Positions 6,709 to 62,592 of a stretch of 64,000 nucleotides of DNA are shown here, one piece after another. The notes under the pieces are model-generated. The model was given only the letters and a program-made list of their open reading frames with translations. It did not search any database and had not been told where the DNA came from. The stretch is taken from NCBI GenBank assembly GCA_964545075.1, contig CAZJFS010000005.1:2319-66318 (forward strand). Direction: 5' to 3'. The position numbers and the translations under genes were made by a program. The stretch's first letter is position 1. The number at the start of each line of letters is the position of its first letter. The stretch comes from an uncultured bacterium (lineage in GTDB: Bacteria > Muiribacteriota > UBA9980).

Positions 6709-6765
6709 GCGAAATTCCTTTTTCAGCTATATTTGAATAGGCGTTTTGACAATGATTGCGATCGC

Positions 6766-6978: not shown

Positions 6979-7112
6979 TTGTCGCCTCCATGGTAAAGTG
7001 CTTTTAACAAATTATATCAACGACCGACGATTTTGTCAACAATCAAGCAACCATAATGAAATTAAAATATTGAGCCGAATGATATTAGAAACCTCATTCG
7101 CCAAAGCTTTTG

Positions 7113-18904: not shown

Positions 18905-19034
18905 TTGATTATATTCCTCCAGTTTGATATTTTTGCCGAGTAAAAAAATTGTCTTGCTGATATATTTTACCGGAAGAATAACGGATGTCGAACATTCGAT
19001 TTTACTATTATTCTTCCGGATGGTTCATGAATTA

Positions 19035-21607: not shown

Positions 21608-21637
21608 ATTATACCACTACCATGTACCGCAAGTCAA
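21608..21637 (-). promoter_or_regulatory. Sigma70-type promoter (TTGACT, 18 nt, TATAAT on the minus strand) for the DPD-like gene.
   Basis: The reverse complement reads TTGACT tgcggtacatggtagtgg TATAAT. Confidence 0.45.
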
Positions 21638-38561: not shown

Positions 38562-39793
38562 TCGTATTCATACAACTGATTATCGGCTTTCAATTTTTTT
38601 AACGTATCTGAAGTCATTCCGATCTCGGCGTCGGACAGGTAGCAGGCCGGGTCCGGGGCCCAGGTATCGTTAAAGATCGCTTCCGCTCTGACCCTGAAAT
38701 TACCGTTACAAATATTCAAATATTTGCATATTTTACAGCGGCCCTTGAGGTGCGGCTTTCTATTTTTAAGCCTTCCCATTAGTTCGTCGGATAAGTCGGG
38801 CCATATTTTAGAAAACGGCCTTTTTCGGATATTGCCGAATGAATAATGGCGCCAGAACTGGTCGGCATGAACTTCGCCGTGCTGGTCGACGCAGGAGATG
38901 GCTATGCCGGAGTTATTTCCGCCGTTATATTGCAGAAGCGTGAGTATTTCGGCCGCTCTTTCCGGATTTCTTTCAAGCATTTTCAGATAAAGCAAGACGC
39001 CGTCAACATGGTTATCGACTGTCAGCACTTCGATCGCATGGCCTTCATCATAAAGTTTTTGAGTCCGTTCAAATATGTATTCTACGGTTTTCCTGGATTG
39101 TGGCAGAGGCACTTCCTCGCTTAAAAGATCGGTTCCGCGTCCGGCGTAAACCAGATGATAAAAGCATACTCTTGGAATGCTTCGGTCTTTAAGCGTATCG
39201 AAAATAAAGGGAATTTCTTTATAGTTGCTTTTATTTATCGTGAAGCGCAGGCCGACTTTGATGCCTTTATCCATGCAATTTTCAATTCCCGCCATAGCCA
39301 TATCGAAAGCCCCTGGAACGCCGCGGAAGCGATCGTTGGTTTCAGCTATTCCGTCGAGCGAAATTCCGACGTAAGAAAAGCCGGCATCTTTTATTTTTTG
39401 GGCAGCATCTTCGTTTATAAGAGTTCCGTTGGTTGAGATCACCGCGCGTATATTCTTCGAGCGGGCGTAATCGCCGAGTTCGAAAAGGTCTTTTCTCATG
39501 AGCGGCTCGCCGCCGGAAAAAAGAAGCGTAGGAACGCCGAATCCGGCCAGATCGTCTATCATGGCCCTTGCTTCCGCTGTTGAAAGCTCGTCTTTGGCCG
39601 GTTCACATTTGGCGTTAGCGTAGCAATGAACGCAGAAAAGGTTGCATTCCGACGTTGAGTTCCATACCACGATGGGTTTTTTGTCCTTTGAAAATTGCAG
39701 CATATTCGACGGCAGCTTTGCTGAATGCCTTCCGTATCTCTGGACGTCGTGCGGAGAAACGAGACCGCATAGTAATTTGGATACGCCTATCAT
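38549..39793 (-). CDS. Radical SAM / SPASM-domain protein of the NirJ/AhbC/AhbD family.
   Basis: The CNLFCVHCY radical SAM cluster motif is present. A C-terminal Cys-rich SPASM region (CKICKYLNIC) is present. Confidence 0.7.
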   Translation of the reverse strand: MIGVSKLLCGLVSPHDVQRYGRHSAKLPSNMLQFSKDKKPIVVWNSTSECNLFCVHCYANAKCEPAKDELSTAEARAMIDDLAGFGVPTLLFSGGEPLMRKDLFELGDYARSKNIRAVISTNGTLINEDAAQKIKDAGFSYVGISLDGIAETNDRFRGVPGAFDMAMAGIENCMDKGIKVGLRFTINKSNYKEIPFIFDTLKDRSIPRVCFYHLVYAGRGTDLLSEEVPLPQSRKTVEYIFERTQKLYDEGHAIEVLTVDNHVDGVLLYLKMLERNPERAAEILTLLQYNGGNNSGIAISCVDQHGEVHADQFWRHYSFGNIRKRPFSKIWPDLSDELMGRLKNRKPHLKGRCKICKYLNICNGNFRVRAEAIFNDTWAPDPACYLSDAEIGMTSDTLKKLKADNQLYEYDWMK

Positions 39794-39889
39794 TTAAAAT
39801 TCTGCCTTCCATGTTAAAGTGTGGAAATTATAACAAAAATTCGATAATCTGTAAATATAAATATAAGCATGGCGTTGGATAAAAATGAA

Positions 39890-39918
39890 TTGACTTTAAA
39901 TCATGTTCTTGATATTAT
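39890..39918 (+). promoter_or_regulatory. Sigma70-type promoter TTGACT, 17 nt, TATTAT upstream of ahbA.
   Basis: The hexamers are read directly, about 75 nt before the ahbA ATG. Confidence 0.45.
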
Positions 39919-39992
39919 TATAAAACAAAAGAAACTTAAGCGATTTTGTCGGGTTTTGAAAGTCGCGTTAAACCCTTTAAAATGAGTGTCGT

Positions 39993-40457
39993 ATGGAAAA
40001 AGAACTGAACGAGTTGGAAAAAAAAATATTAAATCTTATTCAAAAAGATTTTCCCGTCAGCGCAAGGCCATTCGTTAAAATTGCCGAAAAATTAGGCGGC
40101 TTGAGCGAGGAATGCGTCATGGAGTCTCTTCGATCTCTCAATGAAAATGGTTATTTAAGACGCCTTGGACCGATATTTAATTCCGACCGTCTCGGCTACG
40201 TAAGTACGTTAGCCGCTATAGCGGTGAGCGGGGATGAAATTGAAAAAGCCGGTGAAATAATTAATTCTTATATGGAAGTTACTCATAATTACCTGCGCTC
40301 CGATGAAAAATTTAATATGTGGTTTACTTTAACGGCTCATTCCGGAGACCGCCTTTTAAAAATAATCGATGAAATAAAAGAAAGGACGGGCGTGAGTGAA
40401 GTGCTCAATCTTCCGGTCGTAAAAAAATTTAAAATAAAAGTCGAATTTAACGTATGA
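39993..40457 (+). CDS. ahbA: Sirohaem decarboxylase subunit (AsnC/Lrp-like NirD/NirL family, AhbA/B).
   Basis: An HTH_AsnC-like N-terminus with the NirD/L/G/H fold is present. It is paired with a paralog downstream. Confidence 0.65.
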   Translation: MEKELNELEKKILNLIQKDFPVSARPFVKIAEKLGGLSEECVMESLRSLNENGYLRRLGPIFNSDRLGYVSTLAAIAVSGDEIEKAGEIINSYMEVTHNYLRSDEKFNMWFTLTAHSGDRLLKIIDEIKERTGVSEVLNLPVVKKFKIKVEFNV

Positions 40458-40945
40458 TTACATCTGAAAAATTGAAGAAATTAATAAATATGCTTTCGCG
40501 CGGGATTGAAGTAACCCGGAGCCCTTTTTTGAAGATGGCCGAAACACTCGGCGTTTCAGAAGAAGAGGTAGTGGAAGCGGTCCGCGTGATGATGGAAGAA
40601 AAAAAGATCCGCCGTTTCGCGGCAGTTCTGAAACAGTCAAAGATAGGATATTCGGCGAATGCGATGTGCGTTTTCAACATTTCGACCGAAAAAATCGAAT
40701 TCGCAGGCGAATTCGCGTCTTCTTTAAAGGCGGTTAGTCATTGTTACGAAAGGGCGGGAACGCCTTCGTGGAATTATAATCTTTACGCTATGGTGCACGC
40801 TAAATCGAAGCCGGAATGTGAAAAAATCGCCGAAACTATAGCGGCCAAAACTTGCGCCCTCTCTTATAAGGTGCTCTTCAGCGTCCGGGAATTGAAAAAA
40901 CAGAACGCGGTTTATTTCGGCGATAAAGAATTTAATGGAGTTTAA
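40454..40945 (+). CDS. ahbB: Sirohaem decarboxylase subunit (AhbA/B paralog).
   Basis: It is a paralog of the preceding gene with 4-nt overlap. Confidence 0.65.
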   Translation: MITSEKLKKLINMLSRGIEVTRSPFLKMAETLGVSEEEVVEAVRVMMEEKKIRRFAAVLKQSKIGYSANAMCVFNISTEKIEFAGEFASSLKAVSHCYERAGTPSWNYNLYAMVHAKSKPECEKIAETIAAKTCALSYKVLFSVRELKKQNAVYFGDKEFNGV

Positions 40946-42055
40946 ATGAACATTGGTGCATGTCAAAACGATAACGCGCCGTCTCATGGCGGTTTAAATA
41001 CCGGCAAATGCCCGCGCCTTATAGCATGGGAACTCACTTCGGCGTGTAATTTAAAATGCGTTCATTGCAGGGCTTGCGCGCCGTCGGAGCGGCCCGCCGG
41101 CGAACTTTCACTTGACCAATGCCGCGTGTTTTTAAACGACGTGGCCGCTATGGAAGGCAAGCCGATATTGATTCTCACGGGCGGCGAGCCATTGATACAT
41201 CCAGATTTTTTTAAGATACTCGAACACGCTTATTCGTTGAAGATGCATACCGTGCTTGCTACGAACGGGACCCTCATAAACGATGATAACGCAGCGCGCA
41301 TGTATTCGCTTGGCGTTTCCCGCGCGAGCGTGAGTATAGACGGGCATGACGCTTCCGGGCATGACGATTTCAGAAAGGTTTCCGGCGCTTTCGAGAGCGC
41401 GCTCAAAGGCGTAAAGACCATGCAAAAAGCCGGGATACAGATCCAGATGAATACGACCATAACAAGGCGCAATATATCCGACATAGAAAAAATATTCGAA
41501 CTTGGCGTTTCACTGCGCGCGGTCGCTATACACATATTTCTTCTCGTTCCGACGGGAAGGGCCGCGAACATGATTGGCGACGAGATATCGCCCGGAGAAT
41601 ACGAAAGCGTTTTGAACTGGTTCTATGACAAGAAAAAAGATACGGCTGGCCGCATCAATTTAAAGGCGACATGCGCTCCTCATTATTACAGGATAATGCG
41701 CCAGCGCGCGAAAGCCGACGGCGTCGCGGTCGATTTTCAAACTTTCGGGCCCGACGCGGTAAGCCGTGGCTGTCTCGCCGGATGCGGGTTCGCGTTCGTA
41801 TCGTCGACCGGCATAGTCCAGGGCTGCGGCTATATGCCGGTTCCGGCCGGAAATATCCGCGAAACGCCTTTTTCAACGATATACAAAGACTCGGAATTTT
41901 TCAACCGCCTGCGCGATCTTTCGAACCTTAAAGGAAAATGCGGCAAATGCGAATACCGGGCCGTTTGCGGAGGCTGTCGCGCCCGCGCCCTGGCGGCTTC
42001 AGGCGATTGTTTTGAAGAGGAGCCCTACTGCAACCATGTTCCCGCTAAAAAATAA
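40946..42055 (+). CDS. Radical SAM / SPASM protein (AhbC/AhbD-type; Fe-coproporphyrin or haem synthase).
   Basis: The CNLKCVHCR motif is present. C-terminal SPASM cysteines (CGKCEYRAVCGGC) are present. It is in an operon with ahbAB. Confidence 0.7.
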   Translation: MNIGACQNDNAPSHGGLNTGKCPRLIAWELTSACNLKCVHCRACAPSERPAGELSLDQCRVFLNDVAAMEGKPILILTGGEPLIHPDFFKILEHAYSLKMHTVLATNGTLINDDNAARMYSLGVSRASVSIDGHDASGHDDFRKVSGAFESALKGVKTMQKAGIQIQMNTTITRRNISDIEKIFELGVSLRAVAIHIFLLVPTGRAANMIGDEISPGEYESVLNWFYDKKKDTAGRINLKATCAPHYYRIMRQRAKADGVAVDFQTFGPDAVSRGCLAGCGFAFVSSTGIVQGCGYMPVPAGNIRETPFSTIYKDSEFFNRLRDLSNLKGKCGKCEYRAVCGGCRARALAASGDCFEEEPYCNHVPAKK

Positions 42056-43556
42056 TGCTTTTATAAAGTTTTTTAGTTCCATAACCACGGCGATAACATT
42101 ACTTTTTATAATCGCGCTTTCGTCGGTTGCCGGCACGCTTATTCAGCAGAACCAGGAATTCATTTTCTACAAAAAGAATTTTCCGCAATATTATGGCTGG
42201 ATATATTTTTTTTCACTCGATGATCTTTATCATTCGGCATGGTTCGTCGCCCTGATCGTCCTGTTATGCGTAAACATAATCGTTTGCACGTTAAGACGTT
42301 TCAACTCCAGGCTTCAGGCGGCCCAAACCGTCGATTTTGACATAACCGCGGATTTTATAGCAACTTGCCGCTTCAAAAAAAGCATCGAAAAAGTTTCGAA
42401 TGAATCGGCCGCCGCGGTCATATCCGCTAAAATAAAAGAATTCGGGTACGCGCTTTACGTTAAGGAAACGGACGGCCGCGCCTGTTTTTTTGGAAATTGC
42501 GGCGCTTACTCTTTTCTGGGTGAATTCACGGTTCACGCAAGCCTGCTTATGATAATCGCCGGCGCGCTCATCGGGAATATTTACGGATATAAAACGCAGA
42601 TGGCGGGGGTTCCCGGAGACGTCCGGCCGGTTCCGACGAAGGCTTATTTAGACCTTCAGAACAGGATCGGCGAGACATTTGAAAAGGCGCGGGCTCAAGG
42701 GCGCGACAGCCACGATGAGATAGGAAAACTTATGGCGCGGCAGATGGCGCTTCCTGAAAAGTCTTTTTTTGACGTGCGCATAGATGATTTCAAAACAGTG
42801 TATGCCGAAGGTGGATTGACTGCGGAAGCGCGCGTGAAGAACTGGTACACGACTTTATCAGTCCTGTCCGGAACGACGCCTGTTTATACGAAGACGCTTT
42901 CGGTTAACGATCCAATGAGCTATGACGGGGTCAACATTTATCAGTCTTCATTCGGAGCCGTCACGTGCGGTTATAAAAATTTCAGAATACGGTATCTGGA
43001 AAAAGGCGCCGGCGCTTCTGAAACCTCATTCGTCATAAATGACGCTGAAAATTCGAGTGAGGTGCGCTTTAAAGGTTATAAGATAAGGGCATTGAAATTT
43101 TTGCCTGATTTTAAGATCGATATCGATACAAAACAGGCCTATTCCGCGTCCGATGAGCCGGGAAATCCGGCTTTAAAACTTGAAATAAGCCGGGATGGAA
43201 CCGGAGAGGTTAAGACGCAATGGCTTTTTAAAAATATTCCTGATTTTTCGCATGAAGGCGCGAGTGATGGAGAATTCTCCGGCCGGTTCATTTTCGATGG
43301 TTTTGAAGCGGTTGAAAAACAATATACCGGTCTTCAGATCGCCTATGATCCTGGCGTCTATCTGGTGTGGGCTGGTTTCGCGTTTATGACGGCTGGCTTT
43401 TTCTGGGCTTTTTATATTTTCCATAAAAGGGTCTGGTGCGTCTTCGATAAAAGCGGATGCCGGATTCATCTGGGCGGTTCGGCCGATAAGAACCATGTCC
43501 TTTTCGAAGAGGAATTCAATGAATTTTGTTCTGAAATCGAATCAGAGGTGAAGTGA
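42012..43556 (+). CDS. resB: Cytochrome c biogenesis protein ResB/Ccs1 (System II).
   Basis: An N-terminal TM helix, a large soluble domain and C-terminal TM helices are present. It lies directly upstream of ccsA. Confidence 0.65.
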   Translation: MKRSPTATMFPLKNNAFIKFFSSITTAITLLFIIALSSVAGTLIQQNQEFIFYKKNFPQYYGWIYFFSLDDLYHSAWFVALIVLLCVNIIVCTLRRFNSRLQAAQTVDFDITADFIATCRFKKSIEKVSNESAAAVISAKIKEFGYALYVKETDGRACFFGNCGAYSFLGEFTVHASLLMIIAGALIGNIYGYKTQMAGVPGDVRPVPTKAYLDLQNRIGETFEKARAQGRDSHDEIGKLMARQMALPEKSFFDVRIDDFKTVYAEGGLTAEARVKNWYTTLSVLSGTTPVYTKTLSVNDPMSYDGVNIYQSSFGAVTCGYKNFRIRYLEKGAGASETSFVINDAENSSEVRFKGYKIRALKFLPDFKIDIDTKQAYSASDEPGNPALKLEISRDGTGEVKTQWLFKNIPDFSHEGASDGEFSGRFIFDGFEAVEKQYTGLQIAYDPGVYLVWAGFAFMTAGFFWAFYIFHKRVWCVFDKSGCRIHLGGSADKNHVLFEEEFNEFCSEIESEVK

Positions 43557-43559
43557 TAA

Positions 43560-44561
43560 ATGATGGATGATATTGGCTTTACTATAGCTTTTTTTTCTTA
43601 CATGGCCGGCGCTCTGGCTTATACATATTTTCTTTTTTGGAAACGGTCCCAGCCCGGCCATGCCGCGACTGGCGTATTATGGTTAGGCGCCATTGCTCAT
43701 GCTTTTGCGATTGGCGATCGTATGCTGGCGGCGGGGTACATGCCGATGTCGAACATGTTCGAGTCGCTTTCGGTTTTTTCGTGGCTTATAGCGCTGTCTT
43801 ATTTCGCAGTTGAATATAAATATAAGACGAAATCTCTCGGGCCTTTCGTCATGAGCATATCGTTTACAATGATAGCCATAGCCTCCGTCCTTCCGCGCGA
43901 CATTAAACCGCTTGTTCCGGCTCTTCAAAGTTACTGGCTTGGCCTTCATGTCGCCGTAACGTTTATCGGCGAGGCCGCGTTCGCGGTTTCATACGTTGCC
44001 GCGCTGTTATATATCATGAAGCCGGCGCGCGACGGCGAAAAGTCCTCGGCGTTTTCCAATGTTTTCTCCGCATCCAACGCCGGGGCGTTTCTCGGCGTAA
44101 TATCGTTTTTTATTATAGCGCTTCTGAAAAAAAGATCGGTCATATTTCCGGAGAACTATCCGGCTTTTTATATTCCGCTTGCAGTCGCGACCGTATGTTC
44201 GATCGTTTTTTACCGGATGAGAAATATTATAGTTTCGGTTCTTCCTTCAGGCGAGATATTAGACGATATCAGCTATCGCTCGGTCAGTATAGGGCTGCCC
44301 GTTTTTACGCTTGGCGGGCTGGTTTTCGGGGCTATATGGGCTCACAGGGCGTGGGGGACATACTGGTCGTGGGACCCGAAGGAAACCTGGGCGCTTATTA
44401 CGTGGTTCATATATGCGATATATCTTCATATGCGCCATCATTCCAACTGGCGGGGAATGAAAGCGGCGTATATCACTTCGCTGGGTTTCATCTCGACGCT
44501 GTTCACTTATTTTGGCGTTAATTATCTTCTTTCCGGGTTACATTCATATGGAAGGTTTTGA
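43560..44561 (+). CDS. ccsA: Cytochrome c-type biogenesis protein CcsA/ResC.
   Basis: The WGTYWSWDPKETWALITW tryptophan-rich haem-handling motif is present. Confidence 0.85.
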   Translation: MMDDIGFTIAFFSYMAGALAYTYFLFWKRSQPGHAATGVLWLGAIAHAFAIGDRMLAAGYMPMSNMFESLSVFSWLIALSYFAVEYKYKTKSLGPFVMSISFTMIAIASVLPRDIKPLVPALQSYWLGLHVAVTFIGEAAFAVSYVAALLYIMKPARDGEKSSAFSNVFSASNAGAFLGVISFFIIALLKKRSVIFPENYPAFYIPLAVATVCSIVFYRMRNIIVSVLPSGEILDDISYRSVSIGLPVFTLGGLVFGAIWAHRAWGTYWSWDPKETWALITWFIYAIYLHMRHHSNWRGMKAAYITSLGFISTLFTYFGVNYLLSGLHSYGRF

Positions 44562-44564
44562 TTT

Positions 44565-45905
44565 ATGCTAGTATCCATTGGTTTAAACTATAAAAAGGCT
44601 TCCGTTGGCGTTCGCGAAAAAATGGCTATCGGCGCCGCGAGGCATGCGGAAGTGCTTGCGAGGTTTTATGCTCTTGAAGGCGTTCGCGAATGCGTCCTTC
44701 TTTCGACCTGCAATCGCTTTGAATTATATCTCAGGCTTGGTTCGTTAGACGCTATGGATCTTGTAAGAAACGCCGTAAAGCATGATTTCAATATTTCCGG
44801 ACGCGACATGGCCGAATATTTTTATGCTTACGAGTGCGAGAAGGCGGCCCGTCATCTTTTCGAGGTCGTATCGAGCCTGGATTCGATGATCATAGGAGAA
44901 TCCCAGATACTCGGCCAGATCAAGGACGCCTACGCGCTCGCCGTCGCGAATAAAACGACCGCCGTCGTATTGAACAAGCTTTTTCATCACGCCATAAGGG
45001 TAGGTAAACTTGTCAGGACCGATACTTCGATCGGGAGGAACGCGGTTTCGGTAAGTTCGGTCGCTGTCGATCTGGCAAAAAAAGCGCTTGGCGATCTTGA
45101 ACGCATGTCGGTGCTTCTAATAGGCGCCGGCGAGATGGCGGAGCTTGCGGTTACGTGCCTTATGGCGAATGGCGTTAAAAATGTTGCCGTCGTGTCGAGA
45201 ACGCTTTCCCGGGCTATCGCTCTCGCCGGAAAGTACGGCGCGGATCCTGCCGAGATGCGTGATATGTATGAAAAAATGGCCTTGGCGGATATCGTTATAT
45301 CCTCGACGAGCGCGCCTCATTATGTGGTCGAGCCGCGGCGCGTAGCCGAAGCGATGCTGAAGCGTCCTGAAAAACCTCTTGTCCTCATTGATATAGCCGT
45401 TCCGAGGGATATTGATCCCGGAGTTTCCTCTGTCGAAAACGTTCATCTCTATAACATAGACGATCTAAGGCAGGTTATAGACGGAAACATGCTCTTGAGA
45501 AGTTCGGAAGTGAAAAAGACGCGCAAAATAATAAGCGGCGAGCTGGATCTTTTTATTCAGTGGCTTTCGAAACAATCGGTTATGCCGTTCGTTTCAAGGT
45601 TTCGAAAACACGTCGAAGAGATAATCAAAAGCGAGATAGATAAATTTTCGAAGCGGATGCCCGCTAACGACATCATGCAAAAAAGTATAAAAGCTTTCAC
45701 TGAAGCGGTTATCAACCGGATAACCAGCACGCCCATAATCAAGATACAAAAATGCGGCAGCAAATGCCATGTCGAATCCTGCATAAGAAACGTGGGCTGC
45801 CTTTTCAACCTTGACGGCGATTTTGACGAAGAAACGGCGGAGCCGGTTCGTACGCACAGGGAAGAAACGGCGGAGCCGGTTCGCAAAGCGGAACCGCCGT
45901 CTTAA
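44565..45905 (+). CDS. hemA: Glutamyl-tRNA reductase.
   Basis: The LSTCNRFELY active-site region and an NADPH-binding GAGEMA motif are present. Confidence 0.85.
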   Translation: MLVSIGLNYKKASVGVREKMAIGAARHAEVLARFYALEGVRECVLLSTCNRFELYLRLGSLDAMDLVRNAVKHDFNISGRDMAEYFYAYECEKAARHLFEVVSSLDSMIIGESQILGQIKDAYALAVANKTTAVVLNKLFHHAIRVGKLVRTDTSIGRNAVSVSSVAVDLAKKALGDLERMSVLLIGAGEMAELAVTCLMANGVKNVAVVSRTLSRAIALAGKYGADPAEMRDMYEKMALADIVISSTSAPHYVVEPRRVAEAMLKRPEKPLVLIDIAVPRDIDPGVSSVENVHLYNIDDLRQVIDGNMLLRSSEVKKTRKIISGELDLFIQWLSKQSVMPFVSRFRKHVEEIIKSEIDKFSKRMPANDIMQKSIKAFTEAVINRITSTPIIKIQKCGSKCHVESCIRNVGCLFNLDGDFDEETAEPVRTHREETAEPVRKAEPPS

Positions 45906-50844: not shown

Positions 50845-52011
50845 TTATTTATAAAACTCGTAGAAATATCGCACGGCCGATTCCGGTTCGCTGAAGCTCT
50901 GATACCGGTATTTTATCTTTTCCACGATATTTTTCAGGCAGTCGTATTTATAAGTTATTTTATATATTATTCCGTCTCTTGAATTATATTTAATTTCCTC
51001 TATTAAATTTTCTGAATCGTCATACCGGTATCTTATTCTATATTCTATTGACTCATCTTCATTTAGGTTCGTCTCTTCGGTTAATTTATTGCTTTTATTA
51101 TATGCGTACATAAAACGCCGGGAAAGCTTGGAGCCGATGTATTCGGCGGTTTCCGTCAGATTTCTTAAGGCGTCGTATTTGTAAGTCGTCTTAATATCCA
51201 TATTGGATTGAAGGTTGTGGCGCATTTCCAGCGTTTTATTTTTATTCGCGTCGTATTTATAATTTTCGATTGATATCGTTTCATCATCGGGGCCATAGGA
51301 TATCGTTTCGATCAATTGGCCCGCTTCATTGTATTTGAGAGCTTGTTTATATGAAAGAACGTTTTTTTCATAGTATGATTCAAAGGTCTTGTTTCCGCGC
51401 GCGTCATATTTATAAACATATCTGAAGTCTACCGTGCCGTCGAAGATGCTGCAGATGAAGTCCGTTTCGAATCCGCGCGCGTCGTATTTATGAATGATTT
51501 TTTTGTCGAGGGAGTTGCCGTAAAACCACGACTCTTCCGTTAGTTTAGAGTTGGCGTCGTATTTATAAGACGCCGAGCTTTCGATGCTTTTGTCCGCCTT
51601 GAAATCTATCTGCCTTTTTTTCAGGGATTTTTCGTCGAATATATTCAGGCTTCTGAAGGAAATATTTCCGGCTTCGTCATAAGAAATATTTTCGGACAAG
51701 TTTCCGGCGCGGTCATATTTAAGTGTCGTTTTTTTTATGCCGGCGTTTTCTTTAAGGCCCTTGTTGTAAGAATATTCAAATTCGGTTATTGACTTTACGC
51801 GTTCCCTTATTATTTTTTCACGGTATTTATCGGGCGGTAAATTATTATCGTAATTCCCAGCCATTAAGGGCGGGCGTGATAGGGTGAAAAATAAAATCAT
51901 TAAAATTATCGTGAAAATCGATTTATAATTATTCAAAAAATCAACCTCGTTTAAAATTAAAAAATATTGTTTATTCAATATTGTAGCAGGTTTTTGATTT
52001 TTTTTCCACAA
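50845..52011 (-). CDS. YD/RHS-repeat protein (small, membrane-anchored or secreted).
   Basis: An N-terminal TM helix is present. At least 7 repeats of Y(K/R)YDxxxxLTEE occur, for example YKYDANSKLTEE and YKYDARGNKTFE. Confidence 0.6.
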   Translation of the reverse strand: MWKKNQKPATILNKQYFLILNEVDFLNNYKSIFTIILMILFFTLSRPPLMAGNYDNNLPPDKYREKIIRERVKSITEFEYSYNKGLKENAGIKKTTLKYDRAGNLSENISYDEAGNISFRSLNIFDEKSLKKRQIDFKADKSIESSASYKYDANSKLTEESWFYGNSLDKKIIHKYDARGFETDFICSIFDGTVDFRYVYKYDARGNKTFESYYEKNVLSYKQALKYNEAGQLIETISYGPDDETISIENYKYDANKNKTLEMRHNLQSNMDIKTTYKYDALRNLTETAEYIGSKLSRRFMYAYNKSNKLTEETNLNEDESIEYRIRYRYDDSENLIEEIKYNSRDGIIYKITYKYDCLKNIVEKIKYRYQSFSEPESAVRYFYEFYK

Positions 52012-52131
52012 AAAAAACGCGTGGAAATAAAAATCATTAAATCATAATATAATTTCGCCGAAAAATTATGGATAATGTATCAAAGATATGTTATAATTAA
52101 TAAAAAATAAATTAAAGGGGTGTTCTATATA

Positions 52132-53310
52132 ATGGGTTTAATGAAGTTAATATCTCAACTCGACGCTTTAGATCATAAAATGCACGGCACGGATTTTTTG
52201 CATACATGGAAAAAATCCGATGACCAGATAAGCGCGACGCTTCTTACGGCGCAGATATTAAAAAAATTATATGAAGAAGGCAAAAGTTGTAAAGTATTTA
52301 AATCAGGCCTCGCCATTTCCAACTTCCGCGATAATTCAACGAGGACCAGATTCTCTTTTGCTTCCGCTTCCAACCTTTTAGGGCTCACGGTACAGGATCT
52401 CAATGAAAGCACTTCCCAGATCGCCCATGGCGAAACGGTCCGCGAAACGGCCAACATGATTTCGTTTCTTACCGAAGTTATCGGTATCCGCGATGATATG
52501 TATCTCGGCGAAGGGCATAAATATATGTGCGAAGTCGGAGAGGCTCTCGATGACGGTTACAAGAACGGCGTTTTGCACCAGCGGCCTTCGATAGTCAATC
52601 TGCAGTGCGATATCGATCATCCGACCCAGTCGATGGCCGATCTTTCACATCTCATAAATTACTATGGCGGAGTAGAGAAGCTCCAGGGTAAAAAAATAGC
52701 CATGACGTGGGCTTATTCGCCCAGCTACGGGAAGCCTCTTTCCGTGCCGCAGGCCATCATAGGCCTTATGTCGCGTTTCGGTATGGATGTCGTTCTCGCT
52801 CATCCCGAAGGCTACAACCTCATTCCCGAAACGCTCAAGATTTCCGAAAAGAATGCGAAAAAGTCCGGCGGCAGCTTTAAAGTCGTTAAATCGATGGAAG
52901 AAGCATTCAAAGGCGCCGATATAGTTTATCCGAAATCATGGGCTCCTTATAGCGTAATGCAGACCCGTACGCCCCTGCTTCTGAAAAAAGATCTGGAAGG
53001 CTTGAAGAATCTTGAAAAACAGTGCCTTGCGAATAATGCCAAGCACAAAGACTGGGAATGCACTGAAAAAATGATGAAACTTACAAAGGGTGGAAAAGCC
53101 CTTTATATGCATTGCCTGCCCGCCGATATTTCAGACGTGTCATGCAAGGAAGGCGAAGTTTCAGCTAAAGTGTTCGATAAATACAGAATTGAAACTTATA
53201 AGGAAGCCGGTTATAAGCCTTTCGTTATCGCCGCCATGATGCTTCTTTCGAAATTCAAGGATCCGGCCAGGACCCTTGCGTCGCTCAATAAAAGAAGATT
53301 CGCCGAATAG
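52132..53310 (+). CDS. ygeW: YgeW-type knotted carbamoyltransferase (putative oxamate carbamoyltransferase).
   Basis: The STRTR carbamoyl-phosphate motif is present. There are long stretches of near-identity to E. coli YgeW as recalled: SGLAISNFRDNSTRTRFSFASA, SQIAHGETVRETANMISF, HPTQSMADL, KKIAMTWAYSPSYGKPLSVPQ and ALYMHCLPADIS. An AAAGGGG RBS lies before the ATG at 52132. Confidence 0.85.
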   Translation: MGLMKLISQLDALDHKMHGTDFLHTWKKSDDQISATLLTAQILKKLYEEGKSCKVFKSGLAISNFRDNSTRTRFSFASASNLLGLTVQDLNESTSQIAHGETVRETANMISFLTEVIGIRDDMYLGEGHKYMCEVGEALDDGYKNGVLHQRPSIVNLQCDIDHPTQSMADLSHLINYYGGVEKLQGKKIAMTWAYSPSYGKPLSVPQAIIGLMSRFGMDVVLAHPEGYNLIPETLKISEKNAKKSGGSFKVVKSMEEAFKGADIVYPKSWAPYSVMQTRTPLLLKKDLEGLKNLEKQCLANNAKHKDWECTEKMMKLTKGGKALYMHCLPADISDVSCKEGEVSAKVFDKYRIETYKEAGYKPFVIAAMMLLSKFKDPARTLASLNKRRFAE

Positions 53311-53387
53311 TTCGATTCCAAAAAATTGAAGAATGGGGCGCGGCGGAAGTCCGCCCCCGGTAAATTTAAACAGAGGGATGATTGCTG

Positions 53388-55049
53388 ATGAGTAAAGAGT
53401 TGATTTTGAAGGAAGCTAAAAATTATGAGAACGATATGATCCGGTTCATGCGCGATCTTATAGCTATTCCCGGTGAATCCTGCAAGGAAGAAAACGTTAT
53501 TAGACGCATAAAAACCGAAATGGAAAAAGTCGGGTTTGACGAAATCATGATCGATAAAATGGGGAATATTATCGGCAGGATCGGCGACGGCCAAACTAAA
53601 ATAATGATGGACGCTCATATCGATACGGTCGGTATCGGCGACCGTACCGCCTGGAAGATCGATCCATACAATGGCGAATTCAAGGACGGGATAATATACG
53701 GGCGCGGAGCCTCCGATCAGCGCGCGGCCATGGTCGCCATGGTTTACGCCGGCGCTATAATAAAAAATCTTAAGCTTAAGGACGATTATACGCTTTATGT
53801 TACCGGAACCTGCCAGGAAGAGGACTGTGACGGCCTTCCTCTTTTGCATATGATCCGCGACGAAAAGAAGATCGTTCCCGATTACGTCGTTATAACGGAA
53901 CCGACCAATCTCAACGTTTATCGCGGCCATCGCGGCAGAATGGAGATCAAGGTCGTTACGAAAGGATTGTCATGTCACGGTTCGGCTCCCGAACGCGGCG
54001 TCAACGCGGTTTATAAAATGATGCCCATAGTTGAAGGGATAGAAAAATTGAACGACAGTCTCGCTCCAAATAAATTCCTTGGAAAAGGAACTATAACCGT
54101 TTCAAAGATAGAATGCAAGACTCCATCGTTATGCGCCGTACCCGACGAATGCACTATTTATATCGATCGCCGCCTTACCGCCGGCGAAGATATGAAACTC
54201 GCCGTATCACAGATACAGAAGATCGTCTCGGCTACGGCTCACTCAAAGGACGCGCGCGTCGAGGTTCTTCAATATGAAGAAAAATCATGGACCGGCCTCA
54301 CCGTCGGCCAGGAAAAATATTATCCGACATGGGTATTGCCGGAAGATCACGTTCTTACTCAGGCTATGGCGAAATCGGCTGAAATAGCTACCGGCCATAA
54401 AACCAAAATCGACAAATGGACATTTTCGACAAACGGCGTCGCTTCCATGGGACGGCTTGGAATTCCTACGATAGGTTTCGGCCCTGCTCATGAAGTTTAC
54501 GCTCATTCCATAAACGACCAGGTACCCGTTGAGCATATCGTAAAGGCCGCCGCCGTTTATGCCATGTTTCCCGAGATTTTCACGAAGATGCTCGCCGAAG
54601 AGATAAAAGCCGGAAAAGACCCTAAAAAGGTCGTAATGGAAGTCGAAGCTGAAGCGCCCGCGGAAAAAACCGTCAAGGCTAAACGCGGCCCCGGCAGACC
54701 GCCAGCCAAAGCCGTCGCCAAGAAAAAAGCAGGCAGACCGGCCAAGAAAGCGGGAAGGCCCGCAAAAAAAGCCGCCGCGAAAGTTGAAAAAGCCCCGAAA
54801 AAACGCGGCAGAAAACCGGCCGCTGAAAAAGCCGTTAAAGTTTCGAAAAAAATCGAAAAACAGCCGAAAACGTCAAGGACGCTTGACGACGTACTCAAGC
54901 TTCTAAATATCGGCGTAACTTCTGAAAAAACGGCGAAAAAAGCCGGCAGGAAACCCGGCCCGAAACCCGCGAAGAAAGCGGGAAGACCGGCGAAAAAGAC
55001 CGTCGCCAAAATAGCCGGCAGAAGACCCGGCAGGCCGGCGAAAAAATAA
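53388..55049 (+). CDS. ygeY: YgeY-type M20 family peptidase/deacylase with a C-terminal Lys/Ala-rich AT-hook-like extension.
   Basis: The M20 core (about 400 aa) matches E. coli YgeY as recalled: IPGESC, MDAHIDTVGIG, VTGTCQEEDCDGL, YRGHRGRMEI, HGSAPERG and IGFGP. An extra tail of about 150 aa carries GRPAKK and KRGRKP repeats. Confidence 0.8.
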   Translation: MSKELILKEAKNYENDMIRFMRDLIAIPGESCKEENVIRRIKTEMEKVGFDEIMIDKMGNIIGRIGDGQTKIMMDAHIDTVGIGDRTAWKIDPYNGEFKDGIIYGRGASDQRAAMVAMVYAGAIIKNLKLKDDYTLYVTGTCQEEDCDGLPLLHMIRDEKKIVPDYVVITEPTNLNVYRGHRGRMEIKVVTKGLSCHGSAPERGVNAVYKMMPIVEGIEKLNDSLAPNKFLGKGTITVSKIECKTPSLCAVPDECTIYIDRRLTAGEDMKLAVSQIQKIVSATAHSKDARVEVLQYEEKSWTGLTVGQEKYYPTWVLPEDHVLTQAMAKSAEIATGHKTKIDKWTFSTNGVASMGRLGIPTIGFGPAHEVYAHSINDQVPVEHIVKAAAVYAMFPEIFTKMLAEEIKAGKDPKKVVMEVEAEAPAEKTVKAKRGPGRPPAKAVAKKKAGRPAKKAGRPAKKAAAKVEKAPKKRGRKPAAEKAVKVSKKIEKQPKTSRTLDDVLKLLNIGVTSEKTAKKAGRKPGPKPAKKAGRPAKKTVAKIAGRRPGRPAKK

Positions 55050-55096
55050 ATCAGTAAATTCTAATATAACAATATATTTGGAAGGCAGGTCAGCAA

Positions 55097-56035
55097 ATGA
55101 AAAAAGCGGTTATCGCCGTTGGCGGCAACTCACTTATAAAAGACAAAAACCATCAGACTGTTCAAGATCAATATCTGGCCGTTTGCGAAACCGTTCATCA
55201 TGTAACCACGATGATCGGCAAAGGTTATAACGTTATTATGACCCACGGAAACGGCCCTCAGGTCGGCTTCATATTAAGGCGGTCGGAGATCTCCGCGACC
55301 GAACTTCATGAAGTTCCTCTTGATTCATGCGGCGCCGACACGCAGGGCGCTATCGGCTATCAGATCCAACAGGCTTTTTATAACGAATTTAAAAAGCAGA
55401 ACATAAAAAAAGACTGCGCGACCGTGGTTACCCAGGTGCTCGTCGATAAAAACGACCCGGCGTTTAAAAATCCTACGAAGCCTATCGGTTCGTTCATGCC
55501 TAAAGACGAGGCTGACAAGCGCGTTAAAAGCGATGGCTGGAACGTCAAGGAAGACGCCGGCCGTGGTTATCGCCGCGTCGTGGCTTCACCTATGCCTAAA
55601 CGCATCGTTGAAATAGAAGCTATCAAAAAACTCGTAGATTCAGACTTTCTTGTCGTCGCCGTTGGCGGCGGCGGAATTCCGGTCCTGGAAGACGATAAAG
55701 GAAATCTTAAAGGCACGGCTGCCGTTATTGATAAGGATTTCGCGTCGGCGCTTCTGGCCGCCGAAGTAAAAGCGGATGTCTTTATTATAACTACGGGCGT
55801 TGAAAAAGTCTGCATAAATTACAATAAGCCCGATCAGAGGACTATCGATAAAATGACGATGGCCGAAGCCGAAAAATACATGGCGGAAGGCCAGTTTCCC
55901 GCCGGCTCCATGGGTCCGAAGATCCAGGCGGCTATAATGTTTCTTAAGAACGGCGGCGAAAAGGTTATAATCACCTCACCCGAGTTTATCGGAAAAGCCG
56001 TTAACGGCGAGACCGGAACGCACATAACGAAATAA
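55097..56035 (+). CDS. arcC: Carbamate kinase.
   Basis: The AVIAVGGNSL N-terminus, the amino-acid kinase fold and the size (312 aa) fit. It is co-oriented with ygeW and ygeY. Confidence 0.8.
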   Translation: MKKAVIAVGGNSLIKDKNHQTVQDQYLAVCETVHHVTTMIGKGYNVIMTHGNGPQVGFILRRSEISATELHEVPLDSCGADTQGAIGYQIQQAFYNEFKKQNIKKDCATVVTQVLVDKNDPAFKNPTKPIGSFMPKDEADKRVKSDGWNVKEDAGRGYRRVVASPMPKRIVEIEAIKKLVDSDFLVVAVGGGGIPVLEDDKGNLKGTAAVIDKDFASALLAAEVKADVFIITTGVEKVCINYNKPDQRTIDKMTMAEAEKYMAEGQFPAGSMGPKIQAAIMFLKNGGEKVIITSPEFIGKAVNGETGTHITK

Positions 56036-56233: not shown

Positions 56234-58159
56234 GTGTTTATTATGAATATTGAAAACAAGATAAACTTTACCCGTGAAAGAATATATTCTGCGCGGCTTA
56301 TATTCAAGCCGTTATTGATCGTTTTTGCGCTGATTATTATTTTATTGTTCAGCGTTGCTCCGGTTTCGGCGCTCGATCTTTCTAAAAAATATGCTCAGAA
56401 GGCCGGCGCGGATTTTTTCGCTTCGCTTCAGATGCGGCCGTCGGAGCCGCGCGCGATATTTATCGATGCCGAAGAAGAAAAAGATCCCGTGATTTTATAC
56501 GCCATGTTCTCCGAAACAGGCAGAAAACTATATTTTTTCGGAAAACTTTTGCCGGATGTCGAAAAAAACATTTCCTCGGACTTTGTAAAGCGTTCGCTCC
56601 TCGACAGGTTCAGGACCAAAAGGCGCGACGGGTCTCTTTTTTATGAGCGCGGGAATTGTCTTTCGGCTTTCCTTGAATTGAGCTCGCGTTTGAAATTCGC
56701 GGCGGTTTATGTTCCATATTCGGACGGCGTTAAAATATCCGCGTCAGCTGAAAGAAAAGAGCCTGCGGCCTTCATATCGGACCGCGGATATATCGAAATA
56801 TCATGCTCTTATGACGCTTTTGTCGAAGGCGGAAAGTCGGGTGAAAGATTTCCGGAGCTTTTGAATTTAATTTTTAAATCAGCAAAGCTGAAATTAAGCC
56901 TGACCGTTGAATATAACAGATATTATTTCGACCGTCCGGACATGTTCGGTTTCGTTAATCCGATCTTATCGATGCGGGAGGATAAAATCGGCGCTCCTCT
57001 TTTTCTTTCGCACAAGATGACGCAGAACAGAAGAATAAGCGATAATTCTGAAAAGGCTCTGCGCGACGCGCGTGACGCGGTTCGTTATATTTCAGCCGAT
57101 TACCCTTTGATTTCGCAGGATATGCGCGTTAAGATCGGGGCGGTCGAAGCCGGAGTGAATCTCGATCTGAATGAGCCCGGCCAGACCGATATAGGCTCGG
57201 GTCAGAACACATTCGTCTATCTGTCGTACGGACCCGGGATCAATTATTACGACGCGCCATACGGTTCGCTCGGCCATGCTGAAATGTCTCCGCGATTCAT
57301 CTTTTCCGGAGATTTGTTAAACTTAAGGGACGCGCAGTTCTATCCCAAGAATAGTTGGGAAACGCGCGGAACCGGTATCGCCCGATATGACGAAATAAAT
57401 GCTTTTCAGTCGGACATTCTGACGTCCGGCGAATTTCCGGAAACCTTTGTCCGTTTCGTAGCGCCGGTTTACATGGCGCTTAACGCGCGTGATATATATC
57501 TTGAAAAAATGACGTCCGCGCTGCTTCGATATGGTCTGGCGAATGATACCCGGGAACTTTTGATGGATTTTGATTTCGCCGGCGTGGCGCACCGCGGAAA
57601 TCCGGTCAATAACGAAGTAAGAGTTTCCGGCGCGGTATATCCGGCTTATTCGTCTCGCGCGATGATAGTTCCGGCCGGAAGAAAAAAAATATATCTGGAA
57701 CTTTTTGAGGAAGAACTAAGAAAAGCCAAGGTGAGCCGCTTTCCTGGCGGCACGTATTATCGCGATTATTTCATCGAGGCGGCTTGCGCCGGCGAAGCCG
57801 GAATGAGAGCGGCTTATATCGAATATCTGCTTTTTTCGACGGATCCATGTCTTTTCGGCGCCGTAAAAGCGGCCAGGGAAGAAGGACGCTATGGCGCATA
57901 TCTTTTAACCGCGCGAGCCGCCGCCGGGATCATTGAAAAAGAAGGCCTGGCTTTTTTTGAAAGCGGCCGCGTAAAAGCCCGCAGATCGGAACTTTCCAAA
58001 TGCGCCGAAGCGTATTATGATTATCTGGAGGCGTTGAGGGAGGGGCGTTCCAAATCGCGAATAACTCAGCTTTTCGATCGTTTCGTTCAAACATATAACG
58101 TTTCGAATAGCGGGAACTCTAAAATAGAGTTAAAAGCTCGTCCCGATGATAAGCGATAG
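56234..58159 (+). CDS. Hypothetical membrane-anchored or secreted protein (641 aa).
   Basis: An N-terminal TM/signal segment is present. No family was recognised. Confidence 0.45.
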   Translation: MFIMNIENKINFTRERIYSARLIFKPLLIVFALIIILLFSVAPVSALDLSKKYAQKAGADFFASLQMRPSEPRAIFIDAEEEKDPVILYAMFSETGRKLYFFGKLLPDVEKNISSDFVKRSLLDRFRTKRRDGSLFYERGNCLSAFLELSSRLKFAAVYVPYSDGVKISASAERKEPAAFISDRGYIEISCSYDAFVEGGKSGERFPELLNLIFKSAKLKLSLTVEYNRYYFDRPDMFGFVNPILSMREDKIGAPLFLSHKMTQNRRISDNSEKALRDARDAVRYISADYPLISQDMRVKIGAVEAGVNLDLNEPGQTDIGSGQNTFVYLSYGPGINYYDAPYGSLGHAEMSPRFIFSGDLLNLRDAQFYPKNSWETRGTGIARYDEINAFQSDILTSGEFPETFVRFVAPVYMALNARDIYLEKMTSALLRYGLANDTRELLMDFDFAGVAHRGNPVNNEVRVSGAVYPAYSSRAMIVPAGRKKIYLELFEEELRKAKVSRFPGGTYYRDYFIEAACAGEAGMRAAYIEYLLFSTDPCLFGAVKAAREEGRYGAYLLTARAAAGIIEKEGLAFFESGRVKARRSELSKCAEAYYDYLEALREGRSKSRITQLFDRFVQTYNVSNSGNSKIELKARPDDKR

Positions 58160-60594: not shown

Positions 60595-62592
60595 TTACAG
60601 AGCGAGTGTCGAATCGACAACGGGAACGAGGTTCTGACCGGTAACGGTAATCGATCCTGTAGCGTTCTTTTCGTCAAGCGAGTTGAACGAGAGCGTCGCA
60701 TTGCCGTCTTCGCCGGTTATGCCCGTAACGGTCTGGCCGTTTGCGCCCATCGATACAGCCACGCGCGCGTATTTAACAGCGCGTTCGCCGTTGGTAACGT
60801 TTACGACGACTTTGTCGCCATCGCGTTTAGCGGTGAATTTCGCCTGTTTCGGAACGTCGTTTCTAACCTGCATGGAGCAGTCGCCGAATATGTTGTACTG
60901 TTCGAAAAGCATTACGCCTGATGAGTTAGCCGCGGTACCCCATATCTGCATGCCCTTTAAGATGCCCGTGAGAGCGAGAGCGCCTACCGACGACTGTTTT
61001 TCCTGGGCGGCCTGAACGAGGTTGATCTCTGATTGCATATCGCAGGGCGGAACCCATTCGGCGTTCGTCGATGAACCGAATATCGCTGCGGCGCCGGCTG
61101 GTTTTTCGGGTGTTCCGGCTTTCATCCAAGCTTCGCAGAAGCAGTCGGACCCGCCGTTGAATGCGCCGTTGACGCAGGCTACCGACCATATAACGGGGAG
61201 CATGCGATCGTTTTTAAGGGCAAGAGCTTCGGCGTTTCCAAAGGATGTGGTGACCCATGAGGTTTTCGAGCCGTGACCGATGTAGTTGATGAGCGATCTG
61301 CCTTCGTTTATGGAGGCGGAAAGTTTGACTTTCGAAGCCGTCGGATCGTAGTTCTGATCGACTACGTCGAAGTTGAATTTCATAAGTCCGTCGCGGAGCT
61401 GGTTTGCGCGTTCAAAATCAGTGGGCGTTCCCTGATTGCTTGCGATGCCTACGGCTTTTCTGTACCATTTAGCCGCGTCGCCGGTGTAAGGGAACTGTTC
61501 GTAGTGAATTATTCTTGCTACCTGATTTTTAACTTCGGCCGCGTTCTTGGCTGAAATTCTGGAGATCATGGCGTCCGGAACGTGATCGTCGCCGGCGAGT
61601 TTCGTGTAGCAGGGGTCGGATGCGGCTTTTTCTTTCACGCCCAGGAGCGTGGGAACGAATTCCGAGTCGCCGACGAGTATGATGTAAGCCATTTTCGTAG
61701 CGGCATATTCGGCTTTTATGAATTTGTAAACGTCATCCGCCGTGGCTCCGATTTCGCTCATTTTAGCGACTTTTACGCCGAATCCCTGTTTTTTCTTCCA
61801 TTCGACGAGGGGCATGATTTCCTCTAACATGCTGTCGTGGGATATTACAAGTATGTTTCCGAGCTCGAGTCTTTCGATAACGTCGGTCGGCACGAAGTTC
61901 ATGAATGTGTTTTTATAAATCTCGGCGAATTCGTAAGGAACGGTTTTTTTTGCTTCAGCGCCGCGGACGGCGTTTTTATATCTTAATTCGATCCGCATTC
62001 TTTTAGCCACTTTCATGGCTTTTTTCGCGTTGTCGTACTGGAACGGGTTGACGGAAACTTCAACGCCGCGAACGTCGCGCATAACGAAAGGAGCGCTGGT
62101 TACGACTTTCTTGTCCATTCCCGGGAAAGTGTTTGGCGTGTTATAAAAATCGTTGTATTCGAAATTTACTTCTTCGGGGTTGACATTTCTTGTGATCTGG
62201 CCCTTTGATGGAGCGGCGGCGTTCTTCATTGCGATTTCGGCCCAGTCTTCCGATATTACGCTGGCTTCGACTTCGGCGCCTTCGGGGAGCGCCACGAAAG
62301 TTTTCATTGCGGGTATTTCAGGAAGGCCTTTTTCCATGTGTTTCGATGATATTCCAACGGTCGTGAATTCGGCGTTTTGATTTCCCGCGGGTTTTGTTTC
62401 GCGATAGAAGCCGGGAACCGTAACTTCAATTACTTCGACATTTTTGCTTCTGGTCGTTATGAGTTTCATTTCAGGAACGGCGCCGGATTTAGCGCTTCTG
62501 GTAAGTTGAACCCATTCGGACGCCGCGAATGCGGTTCCGATCGATGATACCGCGAAAGCGATAACGAGAAGGAGAAGGGATAATTTTTTCAT
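60595..62592 (-). CDS. Secreted gingipain-like cysteine peptidase (family C25).
   Basis: A signal peptide is present. The catalytic His context is YIGHGSKTSW. The catalytic Cys context is WSVACVNGAFNG (compare gingipain VACVNGDF). Confidence 0.7.
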   Translation of the reverse strand: MKKLSLLLLVIAFAVSSIGTAFAASEWVQLTRSAKSGAVPEMKLITTRSKNVEVIEVTVPGFYRETKPAGNQNAEFTTVGISSKHMEKGLPEIPAMKTFVALPEGAEVEASVISEDWAEIAMKNAAAPSKGQITRNVNPEEVNFEYNDFYNTPNTFPGMDKKVVTSAPFVMRDVRGVEVSVNPFQYDNAKKAMKVAKRMRIELRYKNAVRGAEAKKTVPYEFAEIYKNTFMNFVPTDVIERLELGNILVISHDSMLEEIMPLVEWKKKQGFGVKVAKMSEIGATADDVYKFIKAEYAATKMAYIILVGDSEFVPTLLGVKEKAASDPCYTKLAGDDHVPDAMISRISAKNAAEVKNQVARIIHYEQFPYTGDAAKWYRKAVGIASNQGTPTDFERANQLRDGLMKFNFDVVDQNYDPTASKVKLSASINEGRSLINYIGHGSKTSWVTTSFGNAEALALKNDRMLPVIWSVACVNGAFNGGSDCFCEAWMKAGTPEKPAGAAAIFGSSTNAEWVPPCDMQSEINLVQAAQEKQSSVGALALTGILKGMQIWGTAANSSGVMLFEQYNIFGDCSMQVRNDVPKQAKFTAKRDGDKVVVNVTNGERAVKYARVAVSMGANGQTVTGITGEDGNATLSFNSLDEKNATGSITVTGQNLVPVVDSTLAL

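Follow-up and report, generated by a model that had tools for sequence, protein, structure and literature searches.

The reductive route of urate degradation, which runs through 2,8-dioxopurine ('yanthine'), was solved biochemically in 2025 by two independent studies, and in vitro reconstitution with E. coli and C. difficile enzymes set both the pathway and the order of its enzymes (PMC12507026; bioRxiv 10.1101/2025.04.24.650524). Urate is dehydroxylated to 2,8-dioxopurine by XdhD/DOPDH, and 2,8-dioxopurine is reduced by YgfK in E. coli or by the PydA-like UacX in C. difficile; the reductase must be coupled with SsnA, which opens the ring before HyuA acts to give 2,3-diureidopropionate (PMC12507026; bioRxiv 10.1101/2025.04.24.650524). 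YgeW then phosphorolyses one ureido group of 2,3-diureidopropionate and, together with the carbamate kinase YqeA, yields ATP, whereas YgeY cleaves the second ureido group and YgeX breaks 2,3-diaminopropionate down into pyruvate and ammonia (PMC12507026; bioRxiv 10.1101/2025.04.24.650524). Here we analyze a 64-kb stretch of bacterial DNA (the window, by which we mean the whole stretch) that carries two loci with genes of this pathway: a fused Fe-S flavoprotein of 827 aa followed by SsnA (17564-21518, − strand), and a ygeW-ygeY-arcC operon (52132-56035, + strand).

We consider it probable that the flavoprotein-SsnA locus supplies the upstream half and the ygeW operon the downstream half of a 2,8-dioxopurine pathway that works although its genes are scattered, and in which a reductase of dihydropyrimidine dehydrogenase (DPD) architecture, probably NADH-dependent, replaces YgfK/UacX. 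Since the pathway has already been published, the gene set itself is not a discovery. What is new here is the reductase variant and a polycationic tail on YgeY; the rest is largely explained by published work, and current understanding is not overturned.

Genes were called from an open reading frame (ORF) listing with NCBIfam and Pfam scans of the window, which confirmed all five gene identities and coordinates of the original prediction. When proteins of the E. coli K-12 region were used as tblastn queries against the window, partners were found only for YgeW (68% identity), YgeY (53%), the carbamate kinase YqeA (48%), SsnA (35%) and the GltD-like part of YgfK/YgfT. The first four are the orthologs that the window shares with E. 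coli, along with the adjacency of a reductase gene and then ssnA, and the ATP-yielding pairing of carbamoyltransferase with carbamate kinase. In E. coli the genes form one region, in the order previously stated, as we verified on the retrieved K-12 sequence; in the window they are split between two loci separated by 33 kb, the reductase is a protein other than YgfK, with its domains permuted, and YgeY carries the polycationic tail. In C. difficile, as in the window, a DHO_dh/FMN-type, DPD-related reductase (UacX) stands beside SsnA in the place of YgfK (PMC12507026). However, UacX is described as having no FAD/NAD(P)H module and as a probable user of ferredoxin (PMC12507026), and this description sets it apart from the window enzyme, which has a full N-terminal Fe-S, FAD and NAD(P)H module. 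C. difficile also has the hydrolase UacY in place of YgeW and carbamate kinase (PMC12507026), whereas the window organism keeps both.

The host is an uncultured Candidatus Wallbacteria bacterium from a digester, and the window has a GC content of 46%. An NCBI protein labelled 'MAG TPA: Candidatus Wallbacteria bacterium' matches the 827-aa flavoprotein at 100% identity, and identical genes also occur on short contigs of JGI 3300010352, JGI 3300009694 and ENA metagenome assemblies. Homologous loci from other genomes are given L-numbers below; those of Wallbacteria relatives are L012 (GCA_964551445.1), L013 (ADurb.Bin243), L006 (at a contig end) and L010 (GCA_964421195.1), and L009, with L009, L010, L012 and L013 together representing three related genomes.

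The ygeW-ygeY-arcC operon

The first gene of the operon (52132-53310, +) encodes a 392-aa knotted carbamoyltransferase that scored far above the cut-offs of two NCBIfam equivalogs for YgeW (NF005538, 685 bits, cutoff 453; TIGR03316, 659 bits, cutoff 500), as against at most 119 bits with the best ornithine or N-acetylornithine carbamoyltransferase (OTCase/AOTCase) models. It aligned collinearly and without gaps to the E. coli YgeW structure (PDB 3Q98; 583 bits, residues 5-387). These scores, the structural match and the 68% identity show that it is not an ordinary OTCase or aspartate carbamoyltransferase (ATCase), in keeping with its earlier placement in the YgeW clade. In the relative GCA_964421195.1, ygeW is called as two ORFs of 295 and 79 aa (L010, 8789-9964), which may reflect a frameshift, a pseudogene or a sequencing error.

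The second gene, ygeY (53388-55049, +; 553 aa including the tail), encodes an M20 metallohydrolase with Peptidase_M20 and M20_dimer domains (Pfam) in its catalytic part (53388-54587, +; residues 1-400). Its match to NF009555 (569 bits, cutoff 321) spans only residues 5-402. The third gene (55097-56035, +) encodes a 312-aa carbamate kinase of the arcC/yqeA type (NF009007, 428 bits, cutoff 266; TIGR00746, 393 bits, cutoff 358). The genes are separated by 77 nt (ygeW-ygeY) and 47 nt (ygeY-arcC), and no terminator-like site was seen on the + strand between the three. A consensus scan found a sigma-70-like promoter candidate 5' of ygeW (52069-52097, +; TGGATA-17-TATAAT with an extended −10 TG), a pattern match that lies in a stretch almost unchanged in the relative L009.

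By orthology to the assayed E. coli enzymes, YgeW is predicted to cleave one ureido group of 2,3-diureidopropionate with phosphate to give carbamoyl phosphate, which the carbamate kinase would use with ADP to make ATP, and YgeY is predicted to hydrolyse the remaining ureido group to give 2,3-diaminopropionate. The link to anaerobic purine/urate catabolism, with ATP made by carbamate kinase, had been drawn in the original prediction and agrees with the 2025 biochemistry. The same prediction took YgeW for an oxamate carbamoyltransferase in the oxalurate/oxamate branch of purine fermentation, which was the long-standing proposal before 2025 and would suit a carbamoyltransferase that adjoins a carbamate kinase. 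This role has been superseded by phosphorolysis of 2,3-diureidopropionate, as two 2025 reconstitutions show YgeW acting on that compound with ATP formed via YqeA (PMC12507026; bioRxiv 10.1101/2025.04.24.650524), and the window protein is a close match to the assayed enzyme. We therefore regard an oxamate role as extremely unlikely.

A predicted reductase with dihydropyrimidine dehydrogenase architecture

The flavoprotein of the other locus (19035-21518, −; 835 aa if translation starts further upstream, at the ATG at 21542) has its domains arranged as in DPD. Its N-terminal half is GltD/PreT-like (Fer4_20, Pyr_redox_2 and NAD_binding_8) and its C-terminal half is PreA-like (DHO_dh and a 4Fe-4S dicluster), so that two [4Fe-4S] sites are followed by an FAD/NAD(P)H module, an FMN-binding TIM barrel with the active-site Cys in SCPQGGDG, and two further [4Fe-4S] sites. 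In a 21-sequence alignment of the family, all 16 cluster Cys ligands and the active-site motif SLSCPQGGDGT were invariant.

We considered whether this protein is a YgfK ortholog. It scored only 149 bits on the YgfK equivalog TIGR03315 (cutoff 835), with a match confined to residues 31-403, and in a BLASTP alignment with E. coli YgfK, window residues 19-404 corresponded to YgfK 443-853 while the FMN barrel (599-730) corresponded weakly to YgfK 288-420. The aligned blocks thus come in swapped order, meaning that the domains are permuted relative to YgfK, and this permutation and the equivalog failure rule out orthology. The label 'DPD/YgfK-like' given by the original prediction can be sharpened, as the protein is a member of a separate family of DPD architecture that is linked to SsnA.

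The resemblance to DPD is itself distant. Pig DPD (1GT8/1H7W) and PreT/PreA have in common with the window enzyme the five-domain order, the four [4Fe-4S] sites, the SCP Cys loop and residues matching N609 and N736/T737, and the domains of 1GT8 are collinear with those of the window enzyme (164 bits). In contrast, the window enzyme is about 200 residues shorter than pig DPD, has Ser at the position of N668, and scored below the cut-off of the PreA model NF006183 (196 bits, cutoff 335). It also differs at the NADPH site, where the basic pair that is Arg-Lys in the NADPH-dependent pig DPD and Arg-Arg in YgfK is replaced throughout the family by an invariant Leu275-Glu276. E. coli YgfK is likewise NADPH-dependent (bioRxiv 10.1101/2025.04.24.650524). 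The loss of the basic pair suggests that the family probably prefers NADH to NADPH.

The ssnA gene (17564-18904, −) lies 131 bp 3' of the reductase gene on the same strand and encodes a 446-aa amidohydrolase (NF005540, 555 bits, cutoff 444). In the scheme that we propose, electrons would pass from a nicotinamide cofactor to FAD, through the four [4Fe-4S] clusters and on to FMN, where an aromatic dioxopurine would be reduced with Cys561 as the proton donor; SsnA, by orthology to the assayed E. coli enzyme, is predicted to open the ring of the reduced dioxopurine by hydrolysing this unstable dihydro product. Gene neighbourhood leads us to predict that the flavoprotein is the 2,8-dioxopurine reductase, taking the place of YgfK/UacX.

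To place the reductase among its relatives, GTDB species genomes were scanned with the 21-sequence alignment, and the best 80 loci (L012-L091) were annotated by tblastn with window and E. coli proteins over up to 10 kb on each side. At least 561 species genomes, spread over at least 12 phyla, contained a relative at 58% identity or more, with homologs 60-77% identical to the window enzyme in Elusimicrobiota, Eremiobacterota, Armatimonadota, Chloroflexota and others. There was room for a downstream gene at 71 of the 80 loci, and among these an SsnA-like gene lay directly downstream on the same strand in 53. Within 10 kb, the 80 loci also had a molybdenum subunit of xanthine dehydrogenase (XDH) type (23 loci), HyuA-like genes (11), YgeY (10), carbamoyltransferases (11, of which five are YgeW at 55% identity or more) and YgeX (3). 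Carbamate kinase was found within 10 kb at none of the 80 loci; in the Wallbacteria lineage it is found with ygeW and ygeY instead.

Complete clusters do occur around this reductase family. In an Ignavibacteria genome (L026), the gene order is reductase, SsnA, YgeY, a ThrC-like pyridoxal-phosphate (PLP) enzyme, hydantoinase, XDH molybdenum subunit, XDH Fe-S subunit and YgeW, with SsnA, YgeY and YgeW all above their equivalog cut-offs, and L029, L045, L039, L086 and L087 resemble it. The window SsnA is 58-68% identical to the SsnA proteins of complete clusters in other phyla. Elsewhere, YgeY stands beside YgeW-like, carbamate kinase and PLP-enzyme genes (L092), and one locus (L093) holds a complete C. 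difficile-like cluster. Together, the neighbourhoods make a strong guilt-by-association case that the family fills the dioxopurine-reductase step.

Two features of these clusters bear on single steps of the pathway. In L026, the threonine-synthase-like PLP enzyme (6434-7603, +) occupies the slot expected for YgeX and may carry out the last step as its non-orthologous substitute. In addition, a carbamoyltransferase of about 330 aa is paired with YgeY in L007 (4146-5159, +) and also in L032, L061, L076, L089 and L093; the L007 protein scored 254 bits on the YgeW equivalog (cutoff 453) and equally on OTCase models, and may represent a second type of carbamoyltransferase at the step of ureido cleavage.

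The DPD-like features also admit a reading in which the two loci are functionally unrelated, with an ordinary dihydropyrimidine dehydrogenase and an amidohydrolase acting on pyrimidines, and YgeW, YgeY and carbamate kinase acting on a different carbamoylated compound. In favor of this, the window enzyme keeps the DPD order of domains, the catalytic Cys and three of the four residues with which pig DPD binds pyrimidines; the 33-kb distance, the lack of a common motif and the family members that stand alone are also consistent with it. However, the low PreA score and the distant pig DPD match argue otherwise, and the genomic partners of the window enzyme are SsnA and purine genes rather than the dihydropyrimidinase and β-ureidopropionase of DPD/PreA. 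The SsnA-linked family co-localizes with YgeY, YgeW and XDH genes in several phyla, and a pair of enzymes that each cleave a ureido group suits a diureido acid derived from a purine rather than a product of pyrimidine breakdown. One further locus (L077, 3370-5799 and 594-1958) has, besides its SsnA-linked copy, a second, 30%-identical paralog of DPD architecture beside a HyuA-like gene, probably for the canonical pyrimidine pathway, which supports the SsnA-linked family being distinct from canonical DPD. We consider functionally unrelated loci very unlikely.

Two-locus layout, partners absent from the window, and regulation

Of the five pathway genes in the window, four encode proteins that pass curated equivalog or subfamily cut-offs, and the reductase is assigned by its neighbourhood. 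We infer the substrates of all five enzymes from orthology to the assayed E. coli enzymes or, for the reductase, from neighbourhood, and the completeness of the pathway is inferred as well. If the two loci do serve one pathway, they would be transcribed separately, and an XdhD/DOPDH-type hydroxylase, a HyuA-type hydantoinase and a YgeX-type lyase are presumed to be encoded elsewhere in the genome.

The separation of the loci is shared by relatives. A block consisting of a 249-aa protein, the reductase, SsnA and YjbQ is kept in L012 (91%), L013 (77%) and L006, with no other pathway gene within 10 kb, and L009 and L010 carry ygeW-ygeY-arcC alone in different surroundings. Because both loci are kept separately in related genomes, the two-locus layout is a lineage trait rather than an accident of assembly, and the 'rearranged' variant suggested earlier is borne out in this sense. 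Nor is such a split unusual, as most reductase-SsnA pairs in other phyla likewise have none of the remaining pathway genes nearby.

Each locus has its own promoter-like site. That of the reductase is a TG-extended, sigma-70-like candidate (21608-21637, −; TTGACT-18-TATAAT), again a pattern match. A sigma-54 promoter would be expected from E. coli ygeV and from Clostridial regulons; the corresponding pattern had two matches in the window, far from both loci and fewer than expected by chance. An Rfam scan of the whole window returned no riboswitch or other RNA family.

Several observations weigh against a single, complete pathway. The reductase is not an ortholog of the assayed YgfK or, given its FAD/NAD module, of UacX, so its substrate is assigned from gene neighbourhood; in the whole family Ser replaces the pyrimidine-binding Asn N668 of pig DPD; and 18 of the 71 family members with room have no adjacent SsnA, such as the Eremiobacterota member L008, which stands alone. 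tblastn with the E. coli K-12 proteins found no XdhA/B/C/D, YgfM, HyuA, YgeX, YqeB, YqeC or YgeV in the window, a difference from E. coli that had in part been noted before (ygeX, hyuA and xdhD/ygfM), and in the three related genomes the 10-kb flanks of both loci are likewise devoid of an XDH-type hydroxylase, HyuA and YgeX. Finally, k-mer and operator searches that included the relatives' upstream regions returned A/T-rich matches but no regulatory element common to both loci.

The absences raise the possibility of a partial pathway, in which the genome would lack XdhD/DOPDH and perhaps HyuA and YgeX, and the bacterium would use intermediates from its neighbours (2,8-dioxopurine or ureido acids) or a related N-heterocycle that needs no dehydroxylation. 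Besides the missing hydroxylase, hydantoinase and lyase, this is suggested by the 57 of 80 reductase loci with no XDH molybdenum subunit within 10 kb, and by an Elusimicrobiota locus (L007) that combines reductase, SsnA, YgeY, a non-YgeW carbamoyltransferase, a xanthine/uracil permease and adenine deaminase without XDH. Absence from a 20-kb neighbourhood, however, says little about a whole genome, and the complete clusters described above are built around the same reductase family. The carbamate kinase gene, which lies within the cluster in 33 of 39 gut strains, is outside it in three bona fide degraders (Liu et al., bioRxiv 10.1101/2025.04.24.650524). We thus hold a partial pathway to be rather unlikely, and favor the scattered but complete one.

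The surroundings of the reductase pair are specific to the lineage. Downstream of ssnA is a yjbQ-family gene (16958-17356, −; TIGR00149, 165 bits), whose position is kept in L012 and L013 and in none of the other 78 of the 80 loci, that is, in Wallbacteria only. Upstream of the reductase gene, the 249-aa membrane-anchored coiled-coil protein (21725-22474, −) has no family match and is kept in L012 (82%) and L013 (40%), again as a synteny of the Wallbacteria lineage only. The ygeW operon has as neighbours a C25 peptidase of the gingipain type, complete with its propeptide, and an RHS/YD-repeat protein (60595-62592, −, and 50845-52011, −), and downstream of arcC a 641-aa protein with no family match (56234-58159, +) is also present in L009.

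Between the loci, 33 kb of sequence carry functions unrelated to the pathway, namely FeoB, Fur, a glycerate-kinase-like protein, EF-G, a siroheme-dependent (Ahb) haem pathway, CcsB with a putative ResB, HemA, cytochrome c biogenesis, histidine kinases and pilin-like proteins. The haem genes (38549-45905) include AhbA, AhbB, CcsB, HemA and AhbC-like and AhbD-like radical SAM enzymes that score slightly under their equivalog cut-offs; an ORF upstream of CcsB (42012-43556) may be ResB-like by analogy with L009, and a 463-aa protein (37170-38561) has a weakly cytochrome-b-like C-terminus. The haem and cytochrome c genes suggest cytochrome-based respiration in this candidate phylum. At the start of the window (1685-4780, +), an AcrB-type transporter ORF (2282-4780) matches its Pfam profile only from position 193, and the 164-aa ORF upstream (1685-2179) may be its N-terminus, separated by a frameshift or a gene split.

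The C-terminal tail of YgeY

The window YgeY is 553 aa long, compared with 381-418 aa in 118 of its 120 best homologs, and so extends about 150 residues beyond the family norm, a feature that the original prediction had overlooked. The extra 153 residues (54588-55049, +) are an appended tail, and the catalytic part is therefore still a member of the YgeY family. The tail is 25% Lys, 18% Ala and 10% Pro, has a net charge of +38, and contains at least six AT-hook-like GRP/GRKP cores (e.g. AGRPAKK, KRGRKP and RRPGRPAKK) as well as one non-repetitive island, SRTLDDVLKLLN.

Among the 120 best homologs, only two have the tail (P0121 and P0122), namely an identical protein and one 87%-identical ortholog (L009), and relatives at 80% identity or less are about 400 aa long. 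In the tail-less relative L010, ygeY stops 18 nt before arcC, which points to a recent insertion or extension. The tail is alignable between the window and L009, with a ratio of nonsynonymous to synonymous substitution rates (dN/dS) of 0.09, similar to the 0.06 of the catalytic part. As judged from these alignments, the tail is under purifying selection and confined to this lineage. An assembly or frameshift artefact was considered and ruled out, as the identical 553-aa protein is present in at least four independent assemblies, the 87% ortholog has the same length, and dN/dS is low.

The tail matched no Pfam or NCBIfam family even at permissive thresholds, and no homolog at E ≤ 1e-3 was retrieved when the tail by itself served as the query, probably owing to compositional filtering. 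A six-frame scan of the window for similar tails in other proteins found none; the one other flagged ORF (54637-54903, +) overlaps the region of the tail in a different reading frame.

Lys/Ala/Pro-rich DNA-binding tails are known from eukaryotic AT-hooks, histone H1 tails and the C-terminal tails of actinobacterial HU/Hlp proteins. The YgeY tail is like these in composition, in its strong positive charge and in its repeated GRP cores with Lys/Arg flanks, but it is attached to a metabolic M20 hydrolase and matches no family model. By this analogy, our guess is that it may bind nucleic acid or another polyanion. It is unusual for a metabolic hydrolase to have a conserved tail that is polycationic and AT-hook-like.

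Combined with the absences described above, the tail allows a more speculative picture, in which Wallbacteria, and many of the XDH-less genomes with the fused reductase-SsnA pair, would have a hydroxylase-independent route. The NADH-type reductase and SsnA would act on another N-heterocycle or on imported 2,8-dioxopurine, YgeW, YgeY and carbamate kinase would harvest ATP from ureido acids, and the tail would anchor YgeY on a polyanion such as nucleic acid, for instance so that purines are salvaged or degraded at the nucleoid or on RNA. We regard this picture as unlikely and prefer the scattered, complete 2,8-dioxopurine pathway.

Within that pathway, the ring would be reduced by an enzyme distinct from both YgfK and the short UacX, one that has the full-length DPD architecture, is uncharacterised and occurs in at least 561 species genomes across many environmental phyla. 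A published YgfK-based BLAST survey required at least 41% identity and 80% coverage (bioRxiv 10.1101/2025.04.24.650524). Surveys of this type would miss the DPD-architecture family, so that anaerobic urate degradation may be more widespread in the environment than they indicate. The use of NADH, if true, would give this step a third kind of electron supply, next to those of the NAD(P)H-dependent YgfK and the probably ferredoxin-dependent UacX.

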